From a virus (taxonomy: Duplodnaviria > Heunggongvirae > Uroviricota > Caudoviricetes), in the IMG/VR virus record IMGVR_UViG_2531839662_000041, positions 1 through 10,722 of that record: DNA of 10,722 bases. One strand, given 5' to 3'. Shown here in pieces: positions 1 through 7,950 of the stretch. The notes beneath the pieces were generated by a model. That model was not told the origin of the DNA. It searched no databases and saw only the letters and a list, made by a program, of their open reading frames with translations. Position numbers and translations under genes: made by a program. Positions within the stretch are counted from its first letter, which is position 1; each line of letters starts with the position of its first letter.

Positions 1-1701
1 TTAAGGTGTGGGTTGTGCCTCTTTGGTTGAGGGTTGCGTCGTTGCTGACTTAACGGTCGGACGCGTCGCCGGAACATTGTCACACGGTTGCTCTTTCGGG
101 CAGATCAAATCCAGCATTTTCAGCGTCACGCCATTGGTCCAGCCAAAGCCATCCTGTAATGGATATTCGCCACCGCCGCCCCCCGTTCCGGTGGTGCTGA
201 CATCATATTTTTCCACCAGCTTTTTCTCCCGGTCATAGGTGTGCTGAACATTGGTCAGGAAGTGCCAGCTAATGTCCATCGCCACCTCTTTTTGCCCGTA
301 GTTTTGTAATCCTTCTGTCGCGACCCACTGTAACGGTGCCCAGCCATTTGGCGCATCCCATTGTTGCCCACTTTTCACCGACGTGGTGTTCAGGCCGCCG
401 GGTTGCAGCAGATGTGTTTTCGTCGCCGTCGCCATTTTGTTGGCGCGATCTTTCGCTGCCGCATTGACGTACAGCGGGAACAGGGCGGCCGCGGTTAACT
501 GATTGCGCACTTTATGACTTTTCAGGTCGTAATCGGCATACCAGCCTTGTTGATCGTTCCACAGGTATTTTTCGATCCCTTTTTGACGGGCATTTGCCAG
601 CGTTTCGTACTGGTTTGCCATCGCGTTATCTCCGGCAGCTTTGCTGGCGCGGGCGAGGATTTTTTCCATTTTAAACATCAGGCTGTTCAGATCGACCGGT
701 ACGATGCTGGTGGTGCGTAAGGTATTTAACTGCTGCGGGTTGTCCATCCAGCGCGAGCTGAAATCCCAGCCAGACGCAGCGGCAGAGCGCAGGTCGCGGT
801 AAATTTCAGTGGCAGGTCGATTCGGATTGCTTTTGGCGGTGGCAATATCTTCCACCCATGACTCTGGTCGTGGCGTATCGCGATCGTCCCAGTAGCGGTT
901 GAGAAGGGTACCATCCTGAAGTTTGACAACGCGTTTTTCCTGTTGTCCGGCTTGCAGGTTTTCAACACCGTCCATCCAGTAAGCATATTCTTTTTGCATT
1001 TGCGGCAGGTATTGCTTCAACGCGGCATCGCCTTCATGCTGCGCCAGTAACTCTACCATCAGGGCAAAGAAGGGCGGTTGCGAGCGGCTTAAATAGTAAC
1101 TGCGGTTGCCGTTGGGAATATGACCGTAAGTGTCTATTTCATGAGCAAAATTGGCCACCATATTCGCGACTTTATCCCAGTGACCGCTTTCGGCAAGTCC
1201 TAACATGGTGAAGTAACTGTCCCAGTAATATACCTCGCGAAAGCGTCCGCCCGGCACGACATAAGGTTCCGGCAGCGGTAACAGAGAATCCCATTTTTCG
1301 GTGTTTTCGGTAGAACGCGTTAATACCGGCCAAAGTCCGTCAATATGTTCGCGCAGTGACTGCCCCTCTGGCGGAACATATTTCTCGCCTTCTTTCGGCA
1401 GGGTGAAATTGACGTTAACGAAATGGCGCAGATCAAATCCGCTCTGGTTTTGCTGCATCCGATAATCAGCAAGGATCATCAGCGGATCGCTGTTCGGCAC
1501 GGCATCGGCAAAGGTTTTTTGGTCCGGAAAAAGTTTGGCGTTTTGCACATCATTAAACAGCGGCCCTAATAAAATATCAGGCGGCTGTGGTGTTACCGGT
1601 GTTTCTTCTGCCTGCACCGATAGCGCAGCGAAACACAAAAAGATACAGGCTGGAATTAACGCCATTTTTTGCGGGCGAGAAGGTGCGGGGGATTTCATCA
1701 A
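1..1701 (-). CDS. treA: Periplasmic trehalase TreA (complete, 566 aa; stop codon at window bases 1-3)
   Basis: The 566-aa translation begins [30 protein letters not shown], a typical Sec signal peptide, and continues with sequence I recognise as E. coli periplasmic trehalase (GH37), including the Gly-rich [21 protein letters not shown] segment near the C-terminus. Length matches the ~565-aa TreA I recall. Identity is from memory, not a search. Confidence 0.95.
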
Positions 1702-1831
1702 TCATTCTCCTTTGGCGAAACCGAATAAAACGGTATTCAAGTATCAGAAAACCTTAGTTCAGGATCGCACTAGCTGCATGATCGAAATCTCATTCTGCGA
1801 ACTGTCAGGCATTTTAGAAAAGGGAATGTAT

Positions 1832-1853
1832 TGATTCACTTGAAGTACGAAAA
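1832..1853 (+). other. MuA transposase end-binding site L1 (attL)
   Basis: TGATTCACTTGAAGTACGAAAA matches the 22-bp MuA end-site consensus TGNTTCAYTNNAARYRCGAAAA at every specified position, 5 bp in from the TG terminus. Confidence 0.85.
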
Positions 1854-1998: not shown

Positions 1999-2165
1999 GC
2001 AATTACTTCACGCATCATTTCAAGTACAGCTTCAAAAATGCTTCAAAAACGGTAACAACCAGGCTTTCAGCAAGTGATGTGTGTCAAAAATAATCATCAC
2101 TGTTTGGGTATCTTACATATGTAATTACCTGGAGTGAAGTTTATGTCTTAGCTATTACCTGGTTG

Positions 2166-2690
2166 TTATACAGCTTTCTTTACATCGTTTTCTCTTACAG
2201 GGAAATTATGTTCTTTGCCTTCATACTGAGACAAAATCTCTCTCACTTTTTCCGGTGGTAATGCCTGAAGAGTTTGCAGGGTTTTCTGTTGCTCCACAGT
2301 AATCCCTAATGCCTCTAATGCCTTATCTTTACTGACAATTGTAGGCATAAGTCCTTTAATCCCTGCTACACGAATGATCTCCACAGCTGCGGCCTGCTCA
2401 TCTGGTGTTAAGAAGCTCATTGCATAAATTAGCCTCTCATCAACTGTATGGGCGATTGATGTATGCACTGGTTTATCAGAAAGTGAGGCTCCTTTAATGG
2501 CCCTGCGTGTTTCTTCTGGCAGACTGTTGATGTGATACTCATAAGCGACACCTTTCCCACCGTGACGCTGACGTTTTACCCAATCTTCCGCCACAGCTTT
2601 CCTGGTAATGTTAGTCGCCAACTTTGGTACACCAGGCATCCCTTCCAGCTCTTTCGCATTAAACCATTCTTTGATTTCAAAAGACATCAT
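2166..2690 (-). CDS. c: Mu/D108-type prophage repressor c (174 aa)
   Basis: Divergent from ner and immediately right of attL, as in Mu. The C-terminal region (LPPEKVREILSQYEG ... VKKAV) resembles the Mu repressor C-terminus as I recall it (LPEEKRKEILSKYG ... VKKAV). The N-terminus ([25 protein letters not shown]) is paralogous to the N-terminus of the transposase in this window. ATG start with an AGGA Shine-Dalgarno 6 nt upstream on the minus strand. Confidence 0.85.
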   Translation of the reverse strand: MMSFEIKEWFNAKELEGMPGVPKLATNITRKAVAEDWVKRQRHGGKGVAYEYHINSLPEETRRAIKGASLSDKPVHTSIAHTVDERLIYAMSFLTPDEQAAAVEIIRVAGIKGLMPTIVSKDKALEALGITVEQQKTLQTLQALPPEKVREILSQYEGKEHNFPVRENDVKKAV

Positions 2691-2875
2691 TTAAAATCCT
2701 AGTGATTTCAATAGAGACAAAATAAATTCATATAAAAATCATGCCGTTATATAAAATCATGGCAAATCATTTCAAATCACTATTGATTTGGAAGTGATTC
2801 CACACTACATTGCACGATATGCCGTGAGCTACTTTATAGCGTAGCTCACGGGGGAATCTGAAAGGATTACATGAA
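2691..2875. promoter_or_regulatory. Divergent c/ner intergenic region: presumed operator sites (O1-O3 / transpositional enhancer) and the Pe and Pc promoters
   Basis: A 185-bp AT-rich spacer between divergent repressor and ner genes. It contains tandem imperfect direct repeats (CATATAAAAATCATGCC at 2728-2745; TTATATAAAATCATGGC at 2747-2763) and several copies of a GTGATTT/AAATCAC core in both orientations (2702-2708, 2774-2780, 2783-2789, 2794-2800). In Mu this region carries the operators, IHF site and early/repressor promoters. Exact site boundaries are not determinable by eye. Confidence 0.6.
2822..2851. repeat. Perfect 11-bp inverted repeat (CCGTGAGCTAC / GTAGCTCACGG) with 8-bp spacer, 25 bp upstream of the ner start codon
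   Basis: Read directly from the sequence: the arms at 2822-2832 and 2841-2851 are exact reverse complements. Confidence 0.9.
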
Positions 2876-3097
2876 ATGCATATGAATAAAAGAACTAACC
2901 GCCAAGATTGGCACAGAGCTGACATCGTTGCAGAGCTACGAAAACGCAATATGTCACTAGCTGAATTGGGAAGATCTAATCATCTTTCGTCTTCAACATT
3001 AAAAAATGCTTTGGATAAGAGATATCCGAAAGCGGAGAAAATCATTGCAGATGCACTGGGAATGACACCGCAAGATATTTGGCCGTCTCGATACTAG
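2876..3097 (+). CDS. ner: Ner-like DNA-binding protein (negative regulator of early transcription; Nlp/SfsB family), 73 aa
   Basis: The translation ([23 protein letters not shown] ... [19 protein letters not shown]) closely parallels Mu Ner as I recall it (DWHRADVIAGLKKRKLSLSALSR ... IWPSRY). AGGA lies 9 nt upstream of the ATG at 2876. Position is immediately upstream of A, as in Mu. Confidence 0.88.
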
Positions 3098-3104
3098 GTG
3101 CGCT

Positions 3105-5093
3105 ATGAAAGAATGGTATACAGCAAAAGAGTTGCTCGGTTTGGCAGGTTTACCAAAGCAAGCCACTAACATTACACGTAAGGCACAAAGAGAAGGCTGG
3201 GAGTTCAGGCAGGTTGCAGGGACTAAAGGTGTATCATTTGAATTCAATATCAAATCATTCCCTGTCGCATTACGTGCTGAAATTCTGTTGCAACAAGGGA
3301 GAATTGAAACCAGTCAGGGGTATTTTGAAATCGCCCGCCCCACGCTGGAAGCCCATGATTATGATCGTGAGGCACTGTGGAGCAAATGGGATAACGCCAG
3401 CGATTCCCAGCGCAGACTTGCTGAAAAATGGTTGCCTGCGGTTCAGGCTGCAGACGAAATGCTGAACCAGGGGATTTCAACGAAAACGGCATTTGCGACC
3501 GTTGCAGGACATTACCAGGTCAGCGCATCCACTTTGCGAGACAAATATTACCAGGTACAGAAGTTTGCGAAGCCTGACTGGGCGGCTGCGCTTGTTGATG
3601 GACGTGGTGCATCCCGTCGCAACGTTCACAAAAGTGAATTTGACGAGGATGCCTGGCAGTTTCTGATTGCAGATTATCTGCGACCAGAAAAACCCGCCTT
3701 TCGCAAATGTTATGAGCGTCTGGAACTGGCAGCCCGCGAGCATGGCTGGAGTATTCCCTCCCGTGCCACGGCCTTTCGCCGGATTCAGCAACTGGACGAG
3801 GCAATGGTTGTTGCCTGCCGTGAAGGTGAACATGCACTGATGCATCTGATACCGGCACAGCAGCGAACTGTGGAACACCTGGACGCCATGCAGTGGATCA
3901 ACGGCGACGGTTATCTGCATAACGTCTTTGTACGCTGGTTTAACGGTGATGTGATCCGCCCGAAAACATGGTTCTGGCAGGATGTGAAAACCCGAAAAAT
4001 TCTGGGCTGGCGCTGCGATGTGAGCGAGAACATTGATTCAATTCGCCTCTCGTTCATGGATGTGGTGACACGCTACGGCATCCCGGAAGATTTTCACATC
4101 ACCATTGATAACACCCGTGGGGCAGCGAATAAATGGCTGACGGGGGGCGCGCCCAATCGTTACCGCTTTAAGGTGAAAGAGGACGATCCAAAGGGACTGT
4201 TTTTACTGATGGGCGCGAAAATGCACTGGACAAGCGTTGTTGCCGGTAAAGGCTGGGGCCAGGCAAAACCTGTTGAACGTGCTTTCGGTGTTGGTGGGCT
4301 TGAGGAATACGTTGATAAGCATCCGGCACTGGCTGGCGCATATACGGGGCCAAATCCGCAGGCAAAACCTGATAACTATGGCGACCGTGCTGTTGATGCA
4401 GAGCTGTTTCTGAAAACCCTTGCTGAAGGTGTGGCGATGTTCAATGCCAGAACAGGCCGTGAAACAGAAATGTGCGGGGGCAAACTCTCGTTTGATGATG
4501 TTTTCGAGCGTGAATACGCCAGAACGATTGTGCGTAAGCCAACCGAAGAACAAAAACGGATGCTGTTACTGCCTGCCGAAGCGGTGAACGTTTCACGCAA
4601 AGGCGAGTTTACGCTTAAAGTTGGCGGCTCCCTTAAAGGCGCGAAAAACGTTTATTACAACATGGCGTTAATGAATGCAGGCGTGAAAAAAGTTGTGGTC
4701 AGGTTTGATCCGCAGCAGCTACACAGCACAGTTTATTGCTACACCCTGGACGGTCGGTTTATCTGTGAAGCGGAATGTCTGGCACCTGTTGCATTTAATG
4801 ATGCTGCGGCAGGCCGTGAATATCGCCGCCGCCAGAAACAACTGAAATCTGCAACTAAAGCAGCCATTAAGGCGCAGAAACAAATGGACGCGCTGGAAGT
4901 TGCTGAACTGCTGCCGCAGATAGCCGAACCAGCAGCACCAGAATCAAGGGTTGTTGGTATTTTCCGGCCTGTGGGTAACACAGTACGGGTTAAATATCGC
5001 ACCCCCGATGATAAATACGAACCCGCTCGTGATGAATATCTGAATCAGTCACTGGATATTCTGGAACAGAAAAGACGTAAAAAAGCCATTTAA
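3105..5093 (+). CDS. A: Mu-type DDE transposase A (662 aa)
   Basis: Length is close to MuA (663 aa as I recall). The catalytic DDE triad is visible in conserved context: D268 in [15 protein letters not shown] (codon at 3906-3908), D335 in [14 protein letters not shown] (4107-4109), and E391 in AKPVERAF (4275-4277), matching MuA D269/D336/E392 spacing. The N-terminal winged-helix region is paralogous to the repressor N-terminus. Confidence 0.95.
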
Positions 5094-5131: not shown

Positions 5132-6091
5132 ATGAATATTTCCGATATTCGCGCAGGACTGCGCACGCTTGTAGAAAATGGAGAAACCACGCTGACACGC
5201 ATCGCCAGTGAATCAGGCGTGGCCCTGAGCACAGTCAGTGGTTTTGTGAATGATAAATATAACGGCAACATGGAATCAGTCGGGCGCACACTGGAACGCT
5301 GGCTGGAAAACTATCACCGCGCAGAAGAACTGCCGGAACCCCCGCGTTTTGTGGAAACTGCAACAGCCCGTCAAATCTGGACAAGTATGCGTTTTGCTAA
5401 TCTGACCGGAACCATTGCTGTTATCTGCGGTAATCCAGGAGTGGGTAAAAGCGAAGCAGCCCGTGAATTTTGTCGCACTAATAATAATGTCTGGATGATC
5501 ACCATTGCGCCATCCCGTGCCAGTACGCTGGAATGTCTGACTGAACTTGCCGAAGAGTTGGGAATGAATAATGCACCATGTCGCAAAGGACCGCTTTCCC
5601 GTAACCTGCGTCGCCGCCTGAAAGGAACGCAGGGACTGGTCATTGTTGACGAAGCTGATCACCTTGACACCGAAGCGCTGGAAGAGCTCCGTCTGTTACA
5701 GGAGTCCGCCTGTATTGGTCTTGTTCTGATGGGGAATCACCGTGTTTATTCAAATATGACCGCTAATGGCGACAGAACAATTGAGTTTGCCCGTCTGTTT
5801 TCCCGTATTGCAAAGCGCACAGCAATTAATAAAACCAAAGAAGACGATGTAAACGCAATTGCGGATGCCTGGCAGATTACCGGGAAAAATGAACGGGAAT
5901 TATTACAGCAGATTGCACAAACGCCTGGTGCGCTCCGCATTATGAATCAAACGCTGCGCCTTGCTGTTATGAATGCCTTCGGTAAAGGCGAACGTGTTAA
6001 TGAGGATTATCTGCGTGAGGCTTACAAAGAGTTAGACCAGGACGTTGATGTTTCGATGCTGCTGGGTGTGCAAGGGGATGCTGAATCATGA
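5132..6091 (+). CDS. B: Mu B-type AAA+ ATPase (target DNA activator for transposition), 319 aa
   Basis: N-terminus [16 protein letters not shown] and most of the protein closely match MuB as I recall it. Walker A GNPGVGKS and Walker [11 protein letters not shown] are present. GAGG Shine-Dalgarno 8 nt upstream of the ATG. Confidence 0.95.
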
Positions 6092-6637: not shown

Positions 6638-7057
6638 ATGAAAGCCAAAATCAGAAACGAAATTCAGGCATTAATTCGGATTAAAGAGCGTAATAGCAAT
6701 GGTGGAGACTTGCGCGAATTTATTTGCGCGCGCGAAGTTGAGGGATATGGCGAAAAGACTTACCTGATTGCATTCGACCATTACAGCATTTGTGCGCGTT
6801 ATTGCGGGGAGGCGGTATTCCGCGCCATTACGTTTGGCAATGCCTTCAATGTGGATTTATGGGAATACGTCATGGACCGTGAATACATCAGCGCGTCAGA
6901 CCCGGACGCACGGGAGCAGTGGCAGAACATCTGGCGCGATTACCGGCAAATGGCGAAAGGCTGGACGCAGGGGACGTATTCTTCCCTTGCCCTGAAAGCG
7001 GTTCAGTTATCGCTGCGGCATGTTCCGTCAGTACGGTTTGAACTTGCGGTGCACTGA
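6638..7057 (+). CDS. Hypothetical early-region protein (139 aa), Cys/His-containing
   Basis: ATG start with GGAA 8 nt upstream. It sits in the same-strand operon-like run between B and gam. Contains a C-x-...-HYSICARYCGE cluster that might bind a metal. Function unknown. Confidence 0.55.
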   Translation: MKAKIRNEIQALIRIKERNSNGGDLREFICAREVEGYGEKTYLIAFDHYSICARYCGEAVFRAITFGNAFNVDLWEYVMDREYISASDPDAREQWQNIWRDYRQMAKGWTQGTYSSLALKAVQLSLRHVPSVRFELAVH

Positions 7058-7074
7058 TACAGGAGGGCGACATC

Positions 7075-7363
7075 ATGATACCCCCTCGTAAAAGATGGTC
7101 ACGTGAAGACCGGGAATTTATCGAAGCCAGTGTCGGGAAAATGACTGTTGAAGAAATGGCGAAAAAAACTGAACGTTGCCCCAACCGCCCTACAGGCACA
7201 TGCCAGAAGACACGGAATATCGTTGTGTGCATACCGGGTCAGTGAGCACGACAAATATTTGTGTCGTGAACTTTATAAAGAAGGGCTGGATATTCATGTC
7301 ATTACCCAAAAGATGGAATTAAGCAATCGTGCTGTATCCAGCATTGTATACAGCGAATATTAA
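7075..7363 (+). pseudogene. Frameshifted (or slippage-dependent) helix-turn-helix early gene: frame 1 (7075-7248) and frame 2 (to 7363) join at an A7 tract (7162-7168)
   Basis: A strong AGGAGG Shine-Dalgarno 8 nt upstream of the ATG at 7075 opens a reading frame giving MIPPRKRWSREDREFIEASVGKMTVEEMAKK, after which the translation becomes unprotein-like (TERCPNRPTGTCQKTRNIVVCIPGQ) and stops at 7248. The +1 frame from the A7 run gives LNVAPTALQAHARRHGISLCAYRVSEHDKYLCRELYKEGLDIHVITQKMELSNRAVSSIVYSEY. Joined, ...TVEEMAKKLNVAPTALQAHARRHGISL forms a textbook helix-turn-helix. Removing one A from the A7 run restores a single ~95-aa ORF. Confidence 0.6.
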
Positions 7364-7383
7364 TTAACAGGAGCTTTATTTAT

Positions 7384-7908
7384 ATGGCTAAACCAGCAAA
7401 ACGAATCAAGAATGCCGCAGCGGCTTATGTTCCACAGTCCCGCGATGCCGTGGTATGTGATATCCGCCGGATTGGTGACCTGCAACGCGAAGCGGCACGA
7501 CTTGAAACGGAAATGAATGACGCTATCGCTGAAATTACAGAGAAATACGCCTCACAGATTGCGCCGCTAAAAACCAGTATCGAAACCCTTTCAAAAGGCG
7601 TTCAGGGATGGTGTGAAGCGAACCGTGACGAACTGACGAACGGCGGCAAGGTGAAGACGGCGAACCTGGTAACCGGCGATGTGTCATGGCGTCAGCGCCC
7701 ACCATCGGTAAGTATTCGCGGTGTGGATGCGGTGATGGAAACACTGGAGCGTCTTGGCCTGCAACGCTTTATTCGCACGAAACAGGAAATCAACAAGGAA
7801 GCGATTTTACTGGAACCGAAAGCGGTCGCAGGTGTTGCCGGAATTACAGTTAAATCAGGCATTGAAGATTTTTCTATTATTCCGTTTGAACAGGAAGCCG
7901 GTATTTAA
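7384..7908 (+). CDS. gam: Gam, host-nuclease inhibitor / DNA-end-binding protein (Ku-like), 174 aa
   Basis: The translation MAKPAKRIKNAAAAYVPQSRDAV ... LETEMNDAIAEITEKYA ... GWCEANRDELTNGGKVKTANLVTGDVSWR ... FSIIPFEQEAGI is near-identical to Mu Gam as I recall it, and the same length (174 aa). AGGAG Shine-Dalgarno upstream. Confidence 0.93.
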   Translation: MAKPAKRIKNAAAAYVPQSRDAVVCDIRRIGDLQREAARLETEMNDAIAEITEKYASQIAPLKTSIETLSKGVQGWCEANRDELTNGGKVKTANLVTGDVSWRQRPPSVSIRGVDAVMETLERLGLQRFIRTKQEINKEAILLEPKAVAGVAGITVKSGIEDFSIIPFEQEAGI

Positions 7909-7950
7909 TATCACCATTAATATTTAATTAGTTCACTTTCTTTTAATTAT

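Follow-up and report, generated by a model that had tools for sequence, protein, structure and literature searches.

In phage Mu, a third operator for the repressor is located between O2 and ner. In phage D108, the Ner protein is reportedly a monomer that oligomerises on its operator, as attributed to Kukolj et al. in 1989, and the Ner footprint is said, from the work of the DuBow laboratory (Tolias and DuBow in 1985, Kukolj et al. in 1989), to consist of two 11-bp inverted repeats with an 8-bp AT-rich spacer. The D108 Ner repressor and a 61-bp operator are the subject of Benevides et al. 1994, and the D108 control region is the subject of Mizuuchi et al. 1986, as cited in PMC3820752. For Mu, the promoters Pe and Pc and the arrangement of operator/enhancer and IHF have been described (PMC3820752). 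Concerning the protein family, EnrR is monomeric in solution; on DNA, two copies lie side by side in the major groove, with distortion of the DNA (PMC9023278).

The locus compared here with these systems belongs to a stretch of viral DNA of 10,722 nucleotides, referred to as the window, and comprises the spacer between the divergent genes c and ner, with a perfect palindrome shortly before ner.

The prophage and its early control region

Interval 2691-2875 of the window is, judged from sequence, the divergent c/ner early control region of a D108-type Mu-like prophage, characterised previously. This assignment, which coincides with the original prediction of a D108-type operator-promoter region, follows from near-identity and collinearity with D108. 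From its nt 1 onwards, D108 was collinear with the window, with 17 substitutions in 1674 bp, and megablast of positions 2100-3200 gave 98.9% identity with phage D108 and 86% with Shigella phage SfMu. Within 2795-3310 the differences from D108 were zero, and the adjacent IHF/O2 segment 2745-2794 contained eight substitutions relative to D108. At the protein level, c was 98.9% identical to D108 c, and Ner was 100% identical to D108 Ner. Positions 2560-2960 matched the chromosomes of E. coli UMNF18 and STEC383 with 100% identity, the copy in the window being a chromosomal prophage, and 50 of 5426 complete E. coli genomes (about 1%) contained related copies. A protein scan of contigs found no relatives of the c protein in species-representative genomes. 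The features of the prophage left end and its control region are the following:

1-1701, minus strand: host trehalase gene, left of attL (Pfam match)
1827-1853, plus strand: prophage left end (attL), TGTATTGATTCACTTGAAGTACGAAAA, a Mu-type end (collinearity with D108)
2166-2690, minus strand: c immunity repressor, 174 aa, with an N-terminal Mu DNA-binding domain (Pfam HTH_Tnp_Mu_1, E 3e-51)
2665-2732, no strand: O1-like cluster with inferred limits, overlapping the c start codon (motif positions, 30-nt repeats)
2728-2763, plus strand: two imperfect direct repeats of about 17 nt, the first overlapping the IHF consensus
2737-2749, plus strand: IHF consensus site AATCATGCCGTTA, with 12 of the 13 positions of WATCAANNNNTTR and an A-tract before it
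2764-2800, no strand: O2-like cluster, overlapping the -35 of Pe (four half-sites, nested inverted symmetry)
2783-2811, plus strand: predicted early promoter Pe, with -35 TTGATT at 2783-2788, a 17-nt spacer and -10 TACATT at 2806-2811 (10.2 bits)
2822-2851, no strand: putative Ner operator, 11-bp perfect inverted repeats with the 8-bp spacer TTTATAGC (identical in D108)
2863-2866, plus strand: ner Shine-Dalgarno sequence AGGA (sequence reading)
2876-3097, plus strand: ner, 73 aa, Cro-like early regulator (Pfam HTH_35, E 1e-28)
3105-5093, plus strand: transposase A, Mu-type (ORF list and Pfam)
3105-3284, plus strand: N-terminal DNA-binding domain of transposase A, a paralogue of the c N-terminus (Pfam HTH_Tnp_Mu_1)
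5132-6091: MuB (ORF list and Pfam)

The control region is located 864-1049 bp from the left end at 1827. In the alignment of the lineages, the ner ATG at 2876 coincided with the starts in all of them, an upstream ATG at 2871 being ACG in the D108-type contig L123, and GAGGAT or AAGGAT was kept at the column of the ner Shine-Dalgarno sequence.

Half-sites, IHF consensus and promoters

The spacer had been credited with at least four copies of GTGATTT/AAATCAC, taken as half-sites for a DNA-binding domain shared by repressor and transposase. For the 7-mer the number was overstated, as there are two exact copies in the spacer (2702 on the plus strand, 2774 on the minus strand), with no enrichment across the window. 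The count holds for the 6-mer TGATTT/AAATCA, which occurs six times in the spacer (2703 and 2784 on the plus strand; 2736, 2754, 2764 and 2774 on the minus strand), a number reached by none of 5000 shuffles. An extra TGATTT is found at 2672 on the plus strand, within the initial codons of c, and at 2795 there is a TGATTC variant. The O1-like cluster contains TGATTTCAA half-sites at 2672 and 2703 and the inverted motifs AAATCC/AAATTC at 2694 and 2724, within a family of 30-nt direct repeats (2672-2701 and 2703-2732). The half-sites of the O2-like cluster (AAATCA at 2764, AAATCA at 2774, TGATTT at 2784 and TGATTC at 2795) are about 10-11 bp apart. By reading of the alignment, an IHF-like match occupies the same column in SfMu (12/13), in the IMG/VR contig L095 (12/13) and in Vibrio phage martha 12B12 (13/13). 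The two half-site clusters flanking the putative IHF site are those of the O1-IHF-O2 operator/enhancer layout of the Mu family.

Both c and A carry the Pfam domain HTH_Tnp_Mu_1, and their N-termini are 55% identical over 60 aa (65% in the lineage of STEC388). In this lineage, TGTATTCA is found at the columns where D108 has TGATTT(C/G)A, with TGTATTCAA replacing the O1 motif at the same column, and the N-termini of c and A are both diverged. The martha repressor is D108-like only in its N-terminal 54 aa (54% identity), and motifs of the TGATTTC type are retained. So, the motif changes with the N-termini of c and A and is kept in martha, which supports the proposal that TGATTT-type motifs behave as half-sites of the DNA-binding domain common to both proteins. 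The N-terminal domain of transposase A is presumed to be a second reader of the O1/O2 motifs, in an enhancer role.

Considering the promoters, the Pe candidate obtained the top score on either strand in a position-weight scan, with a predicted start near 2818, and it ends 10 bp before the palindrome. In four enteric lineages (D108, SfMu, STEC388/PhiR68_1 and L095), the pattern TTGnnT-17-TAnnnT occupied equivalent columns of the alignment, and comparable -35/-10 pairs were read at a similar distance 5′ of the palindrome in martha and in a Parashewanella MAG (L192). The scan of either strand gave no confident location for the repressor promoter Pc. One candidate, which would place its -10 (minus-strand TATAAA, 18 nt downstream of TTCAGA) inside the spacer of the palindrome, was rejected because this -10 is missing in SfMu and other lineages. 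An alternative Pc candidate at 2775-2746 falls outside the palindrome.

Two tandem direct repeats of about 17 bp, each with a TATAAAA element as a possible -10 box, had also been pointed out. The repeats exist, but their units of 17-18 nt are imperfect and align only with a 1-nt indel, the exact core being only the 9-mer AAAATCATG at 2735-2743 and 2753-2761, 18 bp apart. Since an exact 9-nt direct repeat with an offset of up to 30 nt appeared in 162 of 5000 shuffles (3.2%), the feature exceeds chance only modestly. Within the D108 lineage the second copy varies, and SfMu lacks it. It is improbable that the TATAAA elements of these repeats would be functional -10 boxes of ner or c promoters rather than sequence of the IHF site. 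The minus-strand combination of TTGAAA (2775-2770), an 18-nt spacer and TATAAC (2751-2746) could be a leftward c promoter, with 6.3 bits, and a plus-strand combination of TTCATA, a 19-nt spacer and TAAAAT gave 5.7 bits. However, no TATAAA-based promoter surpassed 6.3 bits, to be compared with 10.2 for the Pe candidate, and a promoter consensus scan returned a single site for the region, which does not exceed the number in shuffled sequence. Moreover, the second TATAAAA reads TATGAAA in D108 and TGTGAAA in contig L123, while the first repeat coincides with the IHF consensus conserved across lineages.

The palindrome upstream of ner

The palindrome is formed by the arms CCGTGAGCTAC (2822-2832) and GTAGCTCACGG (2841-2851), which are 100% complementary, and its end is 25 bp before the ner ATG, exactly as first described. 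It is the longest perfect inverted repeat of the 10.7-kb window, and the sole one with arms of at least 10 nt and a spacer of up to 20 nt. The claim that such a palindrome was unlikely by chance in 185 bp was borne out: arms of at least 11 nt with a spacer of up to 20 nt appeared in 11 of 5000 dinucleotide shuffles of 2691-2875 (0.2%). When the whole window was shuffled, arms of at least 11 nt appeared in 11 of 200 cases.

The 30 bp of the palindrome were base-for-base identical to nt 996-1025 of D108 (GQ357916), and Ner, the distance to ner and the flanking Pe region are also the same in D108. In terms of sequence, the palindrome is the Ner operator of phage D108 and a putative Ner site in the window; it is an already known element, matching the D108 site base for base. 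Its equation with the footprinted Ner operator draws on this identity, on the comparative evidence given below and on the footprints reported for D108.

Concerning this comparative evidence, a core T(G/C)AGCTAC-N8-GTAGCT(C/G)A, which in the window is TGAGCTAC-N8-GTAGCTCA at 2825-2848, was found 22-30 bp 5′ of every D108-type ner examined (Escherichia, Shigella, Vibrio and Parashewanella). Eight distinct variants were compared: D108, SfMu, L054/L105, L095, STEC388, PhiR68_1, Vibrio phage martha 12B12 and the Parashewanella MAG. Seven of the eight positions of the inner arm were invariant across them and the eighth swapped G and C symmetrically, while the outer 3 bp of the arms and the spacer were variable. 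The arms were unchanged in SfMu and its relatives from E. coli, with three of the eight spacer bases differing. STEC388 and PhiR68_1, which represent a third E. coli immunity type, carry (A)TCAGCTAC-N8-GTAGCTGA(T), with an extra GTAGCT half-site, third and unpaired, 4 bp downstream of the palindrome; their Ner is 64-65% identical and their c 41% identical. Contig L095 has TTATGAGCTAC-N8-GTAGCTCATAA, with a Ner about 66% and a c 57% identical. In martha, the same TGAGCTAC-N8-GTAGCTCA accompanies a repressor of LexA/S24 type and a Ner 64% identical by alignment (65% by tblastn). In the Parashewanella MAG, the core is 22 bp 5′ of ner, and Ner is 69% identical.

The association of the core with ner was also seen in database searches. 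When IMG/VR was searched with 16-base patterns, 8 of the 12 palindromes of TGAGCTAC type and 5 of the 17 of TCAGCTAC type were directly 5′ of a D108-type ner. With a 14-base pattern, 8 among the 120 IMG/VR matches listed adjoined ner, the matches being mostly background. In 596 Gb of representative genomes there were 80 palindrome matches, approximately the estimated chance number, and one of these 80 loci had a ner-like gene, starting 22 bp from the palindrome. Considering all the sources, the core co-occurred with a D108-type Ner in 13 IMG/VR contigs, four lineages (D108, SfMu, STEC388/PhiR68_1 and Vibrio martha) and one MAG. Upstream of Salmonella nlp/sfsB, a host homologue of ner, there was no such palindrome. 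An alternating pyrimidine-purine centre of the spacer (TATA, TGCA, TATG, CATG), like CTATAG of EnrR, was considered as a further common element and dropped, as Parashewanella has TAAT.

Among the core-carrying phages the O1/O2 motifs differ, and the repressors either have 41-57% identity or belong to the LexA/S24 type. The helix T(L/V)KNALDK, in turn, is common to all the core-associated Ner proteins. In Mu and Vibrio phage 1.156.O, whose Ner proteins have TLANALE(D)R, repeats of CTAAGT/ACTTAG type are found at the same place. Judging from these sequences, the palindrome belongs to Ner and not to c, as the core is kept despite differing repressors and operator motifs, and Mu-type Ner loci carry other repeats. 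In addition, what is kept across flanks that cannot be aligned is the inner sequence, beyond mere pairing, a pattern that marks a site recognised by a protein.

The palindrome had been proposed as an operator for a dimeric Ner. The identity with D108 and the way in which the core tracks Ner favour the Ner operator, but not the dimer, given that EnrR is a monomer (PMC9023278). From centre to centre, the two AGCT cores are separated by 16 bp, compared to the 10-bp spacing of a classic HTH dimer, so a simple dimer model explains neither the stoichiometry nor the geometry of binding. The pairing of EnrR monomers on DNA fits a DNA-directed assembly of Ner better than a preformed dimer.

Other interpretations of the palindrome were weighed against the Ner operator. 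It is rather unlikely that the palindrome would function, either chiefly or as a second role, through a hairpin formed at the 5′ terminus of the ner-A-B early mRNA, protecting it from decay that depends on its 5′ end or modulating ner translation. A Pe start near 2818 would place the palindrome in the transcript, at about +5 to +34, and RNA 2818-2890 folds with the 11-bp stem (-23.4 kcal/mol, z = -4.2), none of 200 shuffles being as good. Pairing is also mostly preserved in the enteric lineages, both in the symmetric G/C changes of the STEC388 lineage and in the change of CCG/CGG to TTA/TAA in L095, and the sole single-arm change in the D108 lineage (A to G, in L054/L105) retains a U-G wobble. 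However, any palindromic protein operator located inside a transcript folds likewise, and a hairpin alone would not need seven of eight invariant positions in the inner stem across phages of Escherichia, Vibrio and Parashewanella whose flanks cannot be aligned. Martha has lost the outer three pairs, of which Parashewanella keeps little (two mismatches plus a G-T wobble), and the third GTAGCT half-site of the STEC388 lineage is unpaired. The stem ends 12 nt before the ner Shine-Dalgarno sequence, which is not sequestered, it has no T-run behind it, and there was no match to Rfam, the best score on 2819-2909 being 15.4 bits (E 0.99) against a gathering threshold of 45.

The position of the palindrome is that of the third repressor operator of Mu, and it could be read accordingly as an O3-like operator for c instead of Ner. 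This is very improbable, as the palindrome contains no TGATTT-type motif, its core is kept where c is 41-57% identical or of LexA/S24 type and where the O1/O2 motif is TGTATTC or GAATTC, and it co-varies instead with the recognition helix of Ner. An origin by chance, or a role as intrinsic terminator or attenuator, is hardly credible. Certainly, a G+C-rich stem in an A+T-rich spacer is superficially terminator-like, and an 11-nt arm appeared in 5.5% of the whole-window shuffles. Nevertheless, no T-run follows the stem (GGGGGAATCTG) and a terminator scan gave nothing there, while chance is excluded by the conservation, in distant phages, of the core and its distance to ner. The preferred interpretation of the palindrome is thus that of a putative Ner operator.

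The proposed switch and its known counterparts

Taken as a whole, the control region is very probably a D108-type switch, in which Pe lies within the O2 part of an O1-IHF-O2 arrangement and the palindrome is the Ner operator. By analogy with D108 and Mu, we infer the actual binding of Ner, c and IHF, the repression of Pc and the enhancer role of O1/O2. In the proposed mechanism, the c repressor would bind the O1 (approximately 2665-2732) and O2 (approximately 2764-2800) clusters, turning the early promoter off, and the N-terminal domain of transposase A would read the same clusters as a transposition enhancer. Pe, embedded in O2, would drive the rightward transcription of ner-A-B. Ner, as the first early gene product, would assemble as monomers on both arms and on neighbouring DNA; once bound, it would turn down Pe, with autoregulation of ner and transposase, and also the leftward transcription of the repressor, leading to lytic commitment.

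The window would thus carry an intact prophage switch of D108 immunity, which matters mainly for correct annotation. As a definition of the D108-type Ner site, the conserved 8-bp core is preferable to the 11-bp arms, and a site that moves with Ner, and not with the repressor, could aid the annotation of Mu-like prophages and the prediction of heteroimmunity groups. A tentative extension, possible but doubtful, is that the core and a Ner with T(L/V)KNALDK form a portable, self-contained module that would have moved jointly between transposable phages of Escherichia, Shigella, Vibrio and Parashewanella, with no tie to the immunity repressor. In that extension, the Lys/Ala position of the helix would mark the switch between AGCTAC-type and CTAAGT-type sites, the transcribed palindrome might also serve the early mRNA as a hairpin that shields its 5′ end, and each arm might hold a packed pair of Ner monomers, by analogy with EnrR.

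In comparison with Mu, the putative Ner operator has the same location, between Pe (predicted in the window) and ner, and the operator of Mu is made of tandem 12-bp ANPyTAPuCTAAGT repeats. Mu Ner belongs to the same HTH_35 family (49% identical by MAFFT, 53% by tblastn), with the same presumed role of turning down early and repressor transcription, and its recognition helix is TLANALER versus TLKNALDK in the window. The sites differ as well, with CTAAGT/ACTTAG-type repeats in Mu versus AGCTAC-N8-GTAGCT in the window, although both contain TAGCT; this is in agreement with the different specificities anticipated for D108-type and Mu-type Ner. The Mu Ner consensus ANPyTAPuCTAAGT had no match with up to two mismatches in 2600-2900, and its only three two-mismatch matches in the window, at 6758-7937, were below the chance expectation. 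The O1-IHF-O2 (IAS) of Mu has, as in the window, half-site clusters around an IHF consensus at about 0.85-1.0 kb from the left end, Pe (a predicted one in the window) inside the right-hand cluster and paralogous N-termini of c and A. The half-site of the window is TGATTT(C/G)A-like, unlike the Mu motif, the c proteins being about 29% identical to each other, and there is no third TGATTT cluster between Pe and ner as an equivalent of the Mu O3.

EnrR of Edwardsiella piscicida (PDB 7F9H/7F9I), a nucleoid-associated protein of the Ner family, was the closest solved relative of the Ner of the window (E 1.5e-22). It differs in that it recognises short AT-rich sites of CTATAG type genome-wide and counteracts H-NS, and these sites are not a dedicated phage operator with 11-bp arms and an 8-bp spacer. 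The logic of the switch is that of lambda Cro at OR, where the first product of the early rightward operon binds close to the divergent promoters and reduces the expression of the repressor as well as that of its own operon. Yet the fold family of Cro is unrelated to that of Ner, and the operators of Cro are common to CI, whereas the putative Ner site is separate from the c operators.

Divergence of the switch region and the prophage boundary

When the window was compared with D108 over 1674 bp, 17 substitutions were counted, of which eight were concentrated in the 50-bp IHF/O2 segment at 2745-2794; among these eight are changes in the flanks of two half-sites (2769 and 2794) and in the second TATAAAA (2753). 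Across 2795-3310, the number of substitutions was zero. Within the switch, judged from this alignment, change is fastest in the repressor operator, and the most stable part is the Ner operator. The left boundary of the prophage was located as follows:

Window 1801-1853: host/prophage junction, with host DNA up to 1826 and prophage from 1827

The Mu-type left end, TGTATTGATTCACTTGAAGTACGAAAA, has its first base at 1827, and the start of the trehalase gene (1-1701, minus strand) is about 125 bp away from it.

Leader and start codon of ner

Just 3′ of the main hairpin, the predicted RNA fold contains a weak 5-bp stem (AAUCU/GGAUU, 2855-2868), which pairs part of the ner Shine-Dalgarno. Concerning the start codon, the comparison supports the ATG at 2876, as this position is aligned with the ner start across all lineages, whereas one D108-type contig (L123) has ACG at the column equivalent to 2871-2873, where the window shows an ATG further upstream that looks in frame.

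Additional copies of the half-site

A third exact GAGCTAC, the sole copy in the 10.7-kb window beyond the palindrome arms, occurs inside the ner ORF at 2933-2939 (codons A-E-L-R), some 85 bp 3′ of the right arm. Since the ner of Parashewanella has GAGTTG at the equivalent codons, this copy is probably a coincidence. A third GTAGCT half-site (GTAGCTGATGGCGTAGCT) is present in the STEC388/PhiR68_1 lineage:

L008 1114-1131; L009 ~716-733 (minus strand): third GTAGCT half-site

Its location 4 bp 3′ of the right arm suggests an additional binding position for Ner in this lineage.

Relation to other Mu-like switches

Judging from the paper on the Ner-family protein EnrR (PMC9023278), a D108-type switch can apparently be flipped by a foreign Ner-family protein. 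The comparison with Vibrio phage martha 12B12 concerns the repressor side:

L004 312-977 and 1000-1125: 'LexA family' repressor and operator region

The N-terminal 54 amino acids of this repressor are D108-c-like (54% identity) and are fused to a different C-terminal part; it is an instance of domain shuffling among Mu-like immunity repressors. The operator region carries TGATTTC/GAATTCA motifs, in an arrangement that resembles D108 O2.
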